IMG/VR virus record: IMGVR_UViG_3300030012_002808
Source: an uncultured virus (IMG/VR IMGVR_UViG_3300030012_002808)
Taxonomy: Duplodnaviria; Heunggongvirae; Uroviricota; Caudoviricetes
Reading direction: 5' to 3' (one strand)
Length of the DNA: 64,000 nucleotides
The notes beneath the pieces are model-generated. The model had not been told where the DNA came from. It saw nothing but the letters and a program-made list of their open reading frames with translations, and did not search any database. Shown piece by piece: positions 10,373-12,076 of this stretch; within the stretch, counting starts at the first letter, position 1; every line of letters begins with the position of its first letter. The position numbers and the translations under genes are program-made.

Positions 10373-11215
10373 ATGAATGCGGAAATTAAGCATCAAAATA
10401 CTAAGACTCTAGTTACCAAAGACAATAATAATAGTGCAAACTGCATAGCTCCAAACCTAGTATATGGTTGTTTTGGGGGCTGTGTGGATACTTATTGTTA
10501 TATGTCTAGGTACAATGGTCATAGAGTATTTGTAAACGAGAATGTAGATGATATATTTAATTCTGTTGTAGAATGGGAGAAAGGTTTTACCAAGGTCCCT
10601 GATCAGCAGGATCCAGTATACACCATGGTAGATATTGCATGTAACACGGATTTAGTGCTAATGCAGCGTTATTTACCTGAGCCATTGATAGATTACCTTA
10701 AAAGATATGATAATCATCCTACCTTAAATTCAACTATGGCAACTAAGTATCCTAGTTTGTTGAAACTTGACGTCAAAAAGTTCAACAAAAAACCAAGAGT
10801 AAGAGTTAGTCTAATGCCACAGAGGTTTGCAGATGTGTTAGAACCTAAGATGCAGAAGGTTGCAAGAAGGATTCCTGAGATAAATAGACTCAAGGATCTT
10901 GGTTGGGAAGTGCACGTCAACTACAGTCCTCTTGTTTTCTACAAGAAATGGAAACAAGACTATAGTGAGTTATTTAAGATGGTAAAAGAGATAGCAGGAG
11001 AAAATAAATGTGAGGTAATTGCATTAACTAATCATGCTAGTCAAATGGCAAGATCTTCTGAAGCGGCCAGAGAATTAATGAGCCTTAGCTATGAAGTAAA
11101 AAATAGTTCAGGTGTCATGAGATATCCTTTGAAACATAAAACAAGGTTACTTGAGGAGTTTAAAGAACTATACTCACAGTACTTTGATTTAGACACAATA
11201 AGGTATATTTTCTAA
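10373..11215 (+). CDS. spore-photoproduct-lyase-family radical SAM protein
   Basis: GCFGGCVDTYCY cluster motif, IACNTD, ATK, RVRVSLMPQ, LEP, VHVNYSPL, terminal YIF. Confidence 0.8.
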   Translation: MNAEIKHQNTKTLVTKDNNNSANCIAPNLVYGCFGGCVDTYCYMSRYNGHRVFVNENVDDIFNSVVEWEKGFTKVPDQQDPVYTMVDIACNTDLVLMQRYLPEPLIDYLKRYDNHPTLNSTMATKYPSLLKLDVKKFNKKPRVRVSLMPQRFADVLEPKMQKVARRIPEINRLKDLGWEVHVNYSPLVFYKKWKQDYSELFKMVKEIAGENKCEVIALTNHASQMARSSEAARELMSLSYEVKNSSGVMRYPLKHKTRLLEEFKELYSQYFDLDTIRYIF

Positions 11216-11234
11216 GTATATTAAATATATTAAA

Positions 11235-11242
11235 TATATTTG
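11235..11242 (+). promoter_or_regulatory. Bacteroidota sigmaA -7 element (TAnnTTTG)
   Basis: TATATTTG ending 13 nt before the tRNA start. Confidence 0.55.
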
Positions 11243-11254
11243 AAAAGTAACCTT

Positions 11255-11328
11255 GCACCCATAGCTCAGATGGATAGAGCAACTGCCTTCTAAGCAGTAG
11301 GTCTTAGGTTCGACTCCTAATGGGTGTA
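11255..11328 (+). tRNA. tRNA-Arg(TCT), CCA not encoded
   Basis: GCACCCA/TGGGTGT acceptor stem, D-arm GCTC..GAGC, ACTGC-CTTCTAA-GCAGT anticodon arm, TTAGG-TTCGACT-CCTAA T-arm. Confidence 0.95.
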
Positions 11329-11330
11329 CT

Positions 11331-11626
11331 AAGGGTGTTACTCCACAACGGCAATGTTATATTAAGGTCTATGAAGCGTGGCAAGGCGGATTTAAGATTG
11401 AAGAAATAAGTAAATTTTAGATTGTCAAAGCCTGGGTAAAGCGTGGAGACAGATGAGCAACCCGCGGGGGAAATGGAGGCAAAGTGTATCTGACCTATTT
11501 GGTAATAGAATAGGCATAGAGCCGAATACACAGTATTATACTAACATGGAAGTAAACGTCTATGGAAAAAGATTTGTGAAAGCAACTAGGTGGAGGTAAG
11601 TGCTCTGGTATAATACTACCCTTTTT
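11331..11626 (+). ncRNA. ~290-nt multi-domain structured RNA, family unknown
   Basis: end-to-end stem AAGGGT/ACCCTT then U-tract; nested CTCCAC/GTGGAG, GGCAAT/ATTGTC, GTGTAT/ATACAC, CCTATTT/GAATAGG, AGTATTATAC/GTATAATACT; no + strand ORF in the track. Confidence 0.65.
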
Positions 11627-11647
11627 ATTAATAATTAAATTTAAAGT

Positions 11648-12076
11648 ATGAATAGACTATGGTATCCTAAAGACATGCTTAAGGGCAAGTCTAAAATTAA
11701 ATTAGATAATTTTGATCAAGATAAAGTAAAGTGTAGTGATATTTATGAAGACAAATTTAATGATGATAATTTAACTTTATCAGAGTTTATACTTAAGTCA
11801 GAGTCAAAAAAAAGAAATTGGCTTTTTTCACAGAGTCAATTACAAGATTTATATGTATTAAAAATGAACTCTCAAAGGGCTTTATGTCCTATATGTAATG
11901 GTTATCATACTCAAAATGATATAGATTTTTCTTCTGACCAAACATGTATGGGAGTTAAAATTGAAGGACATTTCAATTTGTTTGGAGGTAATTTTATTAT
12001 AATGCCTTCTCCAAATCAAGAGTATGCAAAAAATATTGTTGTTAATGGAGAAGTTCAAACTAAAATAATTAAATAA
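11648..12076 (+). CDS. hypothetical protein with CxxC motif
   Basis: 142 aa, CPICNG. Confidence 0.65.
   Translation: MNRLWYPKDMLKGKSKIKLDNFDQDKVKCSDIYEDKFNDDNLTLSEFILKSESKKRNWLFSQSQLQDLYVLKMNSQRALCPICNGYHTQNDIDFSSDQTCMGVKIEGHFNLFGGNFIIMPSPNQEYAKNIVVNGEVQTKIIK

Follow-up and report, generated by a model that had tools for sequence, protein, structure and literature searches.

What is encoded in the roughly 300 nucleotides that follow the tRNA gene of a crAss-like marine phage? The DNA analysed here (the window, 64,000 nt, G+C 31%) has the gene content of a phage fragment: helicases and a primase, six very long genes on the opposite strand, and a DNA polymerase with family B entries among its phage relatives. 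Using the letters and open reading frames of the window, a first-pass annotation had proposed that a promoter element and a tRNA are followed, 2 nt later, by a new large structured RNA that is closed end to end, ends in a U-tract and has its 5' end released by tRNA 3' processing. All of the strings that it named were found in the window where it had placed them. The locus is laid out as follows.

10373..11215, + strand: spore photoproduct lyase family gene, 280 aa (Pfam PF20903, E 1.3e-15), the upstream context of the module
11235..11242, + strand: candidate Bacteroidetes -7 promoter element TATATTTG, which fits the consensus TAHHTTTG; predicted start near 11247
11255..11328, + strand: tRNA-Arg(TCT) without an encoded CCA (CTA follows), the sole tRNA of the window
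11330..11626, + strand: RNA module, with ends placed from its presence and absence among relatives and from RNA contigs

The module sits between intact genes, and its ~297 bases have a G+C content of 40%, versus 26-35% in the flanking genes. The proposed order of tRNA, 2-nt gap and closure is correct: the outermost helix, P1 (AAGGGT 11331-36 with ACCCTT 11618-23), begins 2 nt past the tRNA discriminator. The tRNA 3' terminus and the 5' end of the RNA read as an imperfect tandem repeat (window 11318-11342), and the first strand of the RNA could in principle pair with the 5' acceptor strand of the tRNA in a precursor.

An optional module in two phage lineages

With the upstream lyase gene as bait, we collected 43 related loci, ten of which carry the tRNA. 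In four of these ten the module comes right after a tRNA-Arg; in the other six, which lack it, the tRNA runs straight into other genes. A metagenome scan returned 14 further matches, every one of full length, and two of these were contigs already found, which brings the other contigs that carry the module to 16. It lies directly behind the 3' end of tRNA-Arg(TCT) in 14 of the 16, and behind a hairpin of ~55 nt, with the tRNA absent there, in the remaining two (L094 and L098). The hairpin and module of these two contigs follow a family A polymerase gene, whose listed relatives include crAss-like phages, and three relatives of this lineage (L127, L129 and L144) have the hairpin without the module. 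Two phage lineages, one with PolB (the window) and one with PolA (L094/L098), therefore carry the module. The DNA downstream varies by copy, from several unrelated small ORFs to a helicase (L098) or another RNA-like module (L094), and each record holds one copy. No ORF with a conserved stop is present across the 10 sequences that we aligned. These comparisons show that the module is optional, non-coding and sharp-ended, and that it has been exchanged between phage lineages. At L096:1320-1394, a tRNA-Arg with a different anticodon stem directly follows the small genes that, in the window, lie ahead of the lyase; at this site the RNA module is retained but the lyase gene is absent.

A related record of 109 kb (G030, 93% complete) holds the same ~295-nt module. 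The nearest relatives of its terminase are crAss-like and Flavobacterium phages (25-26% identity), from which we infer a Bacteroidota host for the crAss-like phages with the module. The record nearest to the window, G001, has the module region outside its coverage. The six long ORFs on the minus strand (482-3249 aa, window 32315-63950) have no PHROG match at E<=0.001 and probably encode virion proteins of the crAss-like type.

Wider searches led back to the same set. Against 50,697 phage records, blastn gave chance matches of 20-36 nt only, and the true matches in exact-pattern scans of viral contigs were the same four contigs. A covariance model, R1, added no new copy from sets of 42, 24 and 29 related virus records. 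It also had no match in 10 GTDB loci or in the 80 loci that were fully covered among 118 viral tRNA-Arg loci, and 0 matches came from a second pattern for GTDB. R1 was built on 10 close sequences with the arm left unpaired, and these blanks are still compatible with distant relatives. The best weak match to R1 (E 0.002) lay in apparently coding DNA and aligned with that part of the model which covers the unstructured arm.

Conservation of the core

The alignment consists of the window and nine distinct sequences; seven contigs with identical-looking or near-identical copies were left out. Two versions of an internal arm divide it into type A (n=4) and type B (n=6). L094 and L098 bear opposite versions, and both versions are present in both lineages. 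Outside the arm, identity to four type B copies is 232/237, 228/238, 219/239 and 233/237 (92-98%); for the same four copies, third codon positions in the adjacent gene are identical at 85/100, 85/100, 71/94 and 90/100 (76-90%). The core is thus more conserved than neighbouring third codon positions in these four comparisons, which would fit selection, and recent transfer could produce the same high identity. Long purine-rich junctions are invariant across the alignment. Antisense targets elsewhere in the window or in G030 were limited to best matches of 11-15 nt, at E>=0.015.

Secondary structure of the core

The elements of the module, read 5' to 3', are these.

11331..11336, + strand: 5' strand of P1, pairing with 11618-11623; intact in 10/10 sequences, invariant
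11341..11345, + strand: 5' strand of P2, CTCCA; best partner TGGAG at 11474-11478 by MFE and RNAalifold; 10/10, invariant
11346..11366, + strand: inner domain 1, with three alternative folds in competition
11367..11450, + strand: kink-turn candidate that carries the arm; pattern kept in 10/10
11380..11440, + strand: variable arm of ~60 nt in two versions, each a stem-loop, about 50-55% alike
11484..11531, + strand: domain 2, helices of 6 bp and 7 bp around a variable internal loop, from the alignment of 10
11532..11617, + strand: domain 3, a stem of 10-12 bp, from the alignment of 10
11622..11626, + strand: U-tract (T5) at the 3' end; the RNA contig of greatest depth ends at 11625

The helices named in the first-pass annotation held up in part in the alignment. 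The end-to-end closure is intact in all 10 sequences with no varying pair, and a 6-bp Watson-Crick helix of this kind arose in 21/1000 shuffles; the U-tract after the closing stem is the T5 at 11622-26. In domain 2, CCTATTT/GAATAGG is intact in 10/10 and GTGTAT/ATACAC in 9/10, and none of these pairs varies. The domain 3 helix, AGTATTATAC/GTATAATACT, is invariant and intact in 10/10; a 10-bp helix arose by chance in 7/150 shuffles. Pairing like the closure or this stem is thus seldom seen in shuffled sequence. The domain 3 stem encloses a 6-bp hairpin (11545-64), a hairpin with a GAAA tetraloop (11574-85) and a variable, purine-rich loop of 10 nt (11592-11601). The two helices that had been drawn for domain 1 failed, with CTCCAC/GTGGAG intact in 4/10 and GGCAAT/ATTGTC in 3/10, as did the GCCT/AGGC cross-pair (4/10). 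The other suggested cross-pair, GGGT/ACCC, is invariant and mutually exclusive with P1. A second copy of TGGAG, at 11444-11448, is an alternative partner for P2, and inner domain 1 could pair with 11452-11464, form a hairpin with a GCAA tetraloop, or form a 9-bp hairpin with 11375-11383.

In our model, P1, P2, domain 2 and domain 3 would form a four-way junction, and a 5-bp pseudoknot between 11455-59 and 11601-05 is possible in 10/10 sequences. The core model, which was adjusted to the observed variation, is paired in 669/669 cells with one C-G/U-A change. Of its 67 pairs, 63 never vary, and three one-sided changes of the wobble type are compatible with the + strand only. Compensatory (two-sided) changes total three, in three separate events: one in the core and one in each version of the arm. 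Because their pairs are invariant, the helices P1, P2 and those of domains 2 and 3 are backed by energy and conservation, not covariation. The folding energy of the module sequence is unexceptional (MFE z -0.66; homologues -0.35 to -2.32, n=10, 25 shuffles each), and substitutions showed no loop enrichment against the unadjusted, window-only MFE structure (14/143 paired, 10/90 unpaired, p=0.83). With covariation this thin, we regard a highly structured module as likely, not proven.

A kink-turn candidate and a variable arm

In a standard kink-turn (k-turn), two helices flank a 3-nt bulge and the tandem G-A and A-G pairs that come after it, and the -1 pair is mostly C:G (PMC5689011). The candidate has a C helix (11367-69/11448-50), a 3-nt bulge, GAA/GGA, and an NC helix (11376-79/11441-44). 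All 10 sequences keep the standard pattern, one of them having an additional A within its NC helix; the NC helix also has a C-G to U-A change at 11377/11443, and the variable base 11372 falls in the bulge. A strict form of the pattern, chosen knowing the sequence, appeared in 0/500 shuffles, and a loose form in 44/500. A rival 9-bp hairpin (11355-63/11375-83) fits 9/10 sequences, uses the same bases and excludes the k-turn.

The two versions of the arm on this candidate each show one two-sided change and several wobble changes. Their counts were reached by 255/500 and 32/500 shuffles and are not clearly above chance. L7Ae is the usual binder of k-turns; it had no match in a Bacteroides control or in the RNA-bearing phage records tested, which makes a k-turn folded by ions, and not by protein, the simpler guess.

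Presence in RNA libraries

Words of the stretch occur in 12 runs on record as RNA, from five studies. We examined four of these runs, one from each of four studies; the assembled contigs cannot give ends, strand or level. All four metatranscriptomes contain a contig on the module. In run X1, a 309-nt contig covers 11319-11625 at a depth of 249, the tRNA junction has a depth of 10, and a contig spanning the lyase and tRNA of a relative has a depth of 5.7. In run X2, a contig covers 11330-11586 at a depth of 15.7 and the lyase is uncovered. In X8 and X11 the depths of 5 and 2.8 are like those of the surroundings, and the X11 contig spans tRNA and module. Contigs confined to the module thus come from two studies (X1 and X2), a weak hint of a discrete, abundant RNA that is set apart from its neighbours. 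We rejected the missing RNA cover past 11650 as evidence, since the downstream DNA differs between strains.

Comparison with known RNA families

We asked whether the module belongs to a known family. Running cmscan with Rfam 15, the check suggested in the first pass, gave no match in the module at gathering thresholds for the whole window; at E<=10, the region 11200-11700 returned just the tRNA and two unrelated weak matches outside the module. What the first-pass annotation had described stands as a discrete, conserved, non-coding module of ~295 nt without an Rfam match that is present in RNA libraries. It had also noted no signatures of RNase P, tmRNA or group I/II introns, and Rfam, ARAGORN and motif patterns are likewise all negative. 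The P4 3' strand conserved in RNase P RNA (CR-V pattern) is absent, and a loose match at 11552 to an imprecise CR-I pattern was discounted, as it lies in a varying loop. For tmRNA there is no ARAGORN hit, T-loop pattern or ORF with a conserved stop. The R, S and domain V patterns of group I/II introns are absent from the module, which lies between intact genes. We also set aside bacterial Y RNA (the DUF2828 gene is absent from G030 and the Ro-binding motif from the module) and likenesses to Bacteroidota CRISPR repeats, to RNase P loops and to T-box sequence, none of which is backed by Rfam.

ROOL RNAs are about 600 nt long; the module is about half that size, has no Rfam match and comes from marine crAss-like phages. 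ROOL RNAs are found in phages and prophages near tRNAs and have no known protein partner (PMC12286853). GOLLD, which the first pass had cited as a large phage ncRNA adjoining tRNAs, often lies next to them, and a marine example is downstream of tRNA-Met (PMC12286853). The module resembles both in being phage-encoded and beside a tRNA, and resembles GOLLD in having no assigned function, but GOLLD often exceeds 800 nt against ~295 nt here, and the module is without an Rfam match or a demonstrated pseudoknot network. OLE is a large, structured ncRNA that has k-turns and local folds excluding one another (PMC12054373), and the module, too, has a k-turn candidate and local folds that would be mutually exclusive. 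Unlike the module, whose records tested lack bS21 and L7Ae, OLE is a ~600-nt RNA of Bacillota with known protein partners. Membership in GOLLD, ROOL or OLE is ruled out by the absent covariance-model match. The module shares with theta ribozymes a start at a phage tRNA 3' end, inside the +/-5 nt window of PMC10879173, but it is far longer and also occurs without a tRNA. A nested HDV double pseudoknot with P1 at G1 had 0 matches in 11321-11460, using a descriptor of our own for this fold.

Several homologues of the module come from IMG/VR, as do the structured-RNA candidates that Fremin et al. (2023) mined from intergenic regions. Those candidates span 29-151 nt (PMC10690425), so none can be the full module; the part of their supplements that was searched contains no match, and a fragment may be listed. 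Titles and abstract openings, a body of literature with subscription papers mostly outside it, held no description of the module or of a set of swappable RNA modules. We conclude that this is a real RNA family, a tRNA-linked large phage RNA of a known broad kind, and apparently an undescribed one.

Other RNA-like elements near the module

The window and its relatives hold further elements of this appearance. The DUF2828/DUF7788/vWA gene at 1091-2509 matches PHROG 850, "RNA-binding protein". Its leader (771-1075) has repeated TTCAGCA motifs with hairpins and no Rfam match, is conserved before a relative of the gene in L187 (E 2e-14), and is possibly an autoregulatory RNA leader. Behind the gene, at 2532-2878, four small, end-closed RNA-like modules stand in a row, each followed by a T-rich run, and none has an Rfam match. 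The first, which contains an assembly gap (a run of 10 N at 2574-2583), is the same hairpin behind which the 295-nt RNA lies in L094 and L098; the third keeps its closing stem in a G030 variant (L339:9555-9621).

A second RNA-like module, of 114-137 nt, occurs at L029:3868-3982, L041:348-485 and L094:300-435 (minus strand). It lies just before the tRNA in L029, L041 and L093, whereas in L094 it comes immediately behind the 295-nt RNA. Both strands of its closing stem vary from copy to copy, its inner hairpin is variable, and it has no Rfam match. The string GCGGGG is common to the 295-nt RNA (11464-11469), this second module and the small hairpin (L093, L094, L098), with GTGGGG in the window hairpin; spotted post hoc, it could be a shared binding site or chance.

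A model for release and function

The module is very probably a functional RNA of some kind. The RNA contigs weakly show that it is transcribed, and it may accumulate apart from its neighbours. In the model that we prefer, the RNA would be co-transcribed with the tRNA, from TATATTTG (start near 11247) or by read-through. The consensus and start spacing that we used for TATATTTG are those of PMC6847099. The match to that consensus stands; an own promoter conserved among copies does not, as such an element lies at the equivalent distance in 2 of the 13 tRNA-linked copies with sufficient upstream DNA. TAnnTTTG occurs 49 times on the module strand of the window. Read-through is considered because of this low count and because the lyase stop of L026 lies only 4 nt ahead of the tRNA.

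RNase P and RNase Z of the host would then mature the CCA-less tRNA, and a cut after A11328 would free the RNA at C11329 with a 2-nt leader. RNase Z cuts CCA-less tRNA precursors right after the discriminator (PMC8549757). A Bacteroides control has an RNase Z-family match (its score relative to the cut-off is not given), and G030 has none. The release by tRNA 3' processing that the first pass proposed is thus plausible behind a tRNA without an encoded CCA, but it cannot be the sole route, because two of the 16 other contigs lack the tRNA; in those copies the small upstream hairpin would mark the cut or start. P1 would join both ends, and P1 and the U-tract together would set and shield the 3' end. 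To fold into a four-way junction with an invariant core, the RNA would need no dedicated phage protein, and the k-turn would bend the replaceable arm back onto that core. As the least sure step, it may bind a host protein or complex (a factor in RNA decay, in translation or in defence against phages) and serve as its decoy or scaffold, an accessory gene that benefits the phage. Over four positive and eight negative records, mostly partial, none of the window genes in 1-32 kb tracks with the RNA, which is why our preference is for a fold that needs no protein and an action in trans on a host factor. DUF2828, bS21, reverse transcriptase and L7Ae are absent from the RNA-bearing records tested, among which only G030 is near complete. 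For the whole chain, from release by tRNA processing to a trans-acting, protein-free decoy or scaffold on a host factor, we would give slightly less than an even chance.

Alternative explanations

The main rivals to this model are a ribozyme and an RNA-only multimer. The position of the module invites a catalytic reading, in which a new ribozyme frees itself from its precursor or matures the ends of tRNAs, a role like that of theta ribozymes in gut phages. Its size resembles that of large ribozymes. It begins 2 nt past the discriminator in 14 of the 16 other contigs and has invariant purine-rich junctions, a k-turn candidate and GNRA loops; yet no Rfam ribozyme matches at E<=10, our descriptor gave no start of an HDV-type nested P1/P3 core close to the tRNA end, the same tRNA does without the module in 6/10 loci, and the module does without the tRNA in two contigs, so we consider a ribozyme unlikely. 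An RNA-only multimer, a dimer or cage like OLE, ROOL or GOLLD with purine-rich loops as contacts between copies, would suit the GOLLD/ROOL-like setting of phage, tRNA neighbour and no partner gene (PMC12286853), and an invariant 8-nt palindrome lies at 11461-68. We estimate, however, that one such palindrome per 300 nt is expected by chance, the module has about one third of the length of GOLLD, and covarying kissing loops are not demonstrable with 10 close sequences; a multimer is accordingly improbable. A bolder and doubtful proposal would make the module the founder of a class of catalytic or self-assembling phage RNAs of ~300 nt, protein-free, with an invariant active core and a target-setting arm mounted on the k-turn; its targets would be tRNA ends or a host defence factor, and it would be one of several modules swapped at tRNA-punctuated slots of crAss-like phages.

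Other readings place the action elsewhere than in a free RNA. A cis-acting leader, a riboswitch or attenuator for the downstream gene with P1 and the U-tract as terminator, would explain the U-tract after P1 and the mutually exclusive folds of domain 1, and k-turns are common in riboswitches (PMC5689011). We think it quite unlikely, given that the downstream sequence differs between copies and that we found neither an Rfam aptamer match nor a standard terminator. Precise presence and absence, near-identical copies in two lineages and an almost invariant core would also be left by a selfish, non-autonomous mobile element, conserved only through recent spread. Against this stand the single copy per record, the lack of a reverse transcriptase in five records (one 93% complete) and of a group II motif, and an arm of which about half has been replaced, unlike the core; we think such an element quite unlikely. 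The gene of the DUF2828/vWA protein lies 9 kb away, and the hairpin behind it in the window also stands ahead of the RNA in L094 and L098, so a Y-RNA-like partnership suggests itself. It is nonetheless highly improbable: G030 (93% complete) has the RNA without the DUF2828 gene, 29 records with DUF2828 relatives gave no RNA-model match better than E 0.02, pattern searches revealed no T-loop or Y-RNA/Ro-binding motif, and a supposed likeness of the protein to Ro60 gave no PDB match. Finally, the weak folding z-scores, and the fact that RNA libraries can contain DNA, would allow for a DNA-level signal or a chance spacer. We hold this to be very unlikely, since the wobble-type changes fit one strand only, module-confined RNA contigs come from two studies, and the core is conserved above third codon positions.

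Implications

Known large structured RNAs of bacteria or phages fall into few classes, and the tRNA-linked ones of phages, GOLLD and ROOL, still lack a known function. The module described here is short enough for immediate synthesis and probing. Pairs of phages with and without it, and the two versions of its arm, are natural, built-in controls, and it is present in ocean metatranscriptomes. It also suggests that marine crAss-like phages carry a set of RNA modules that can be swapped.
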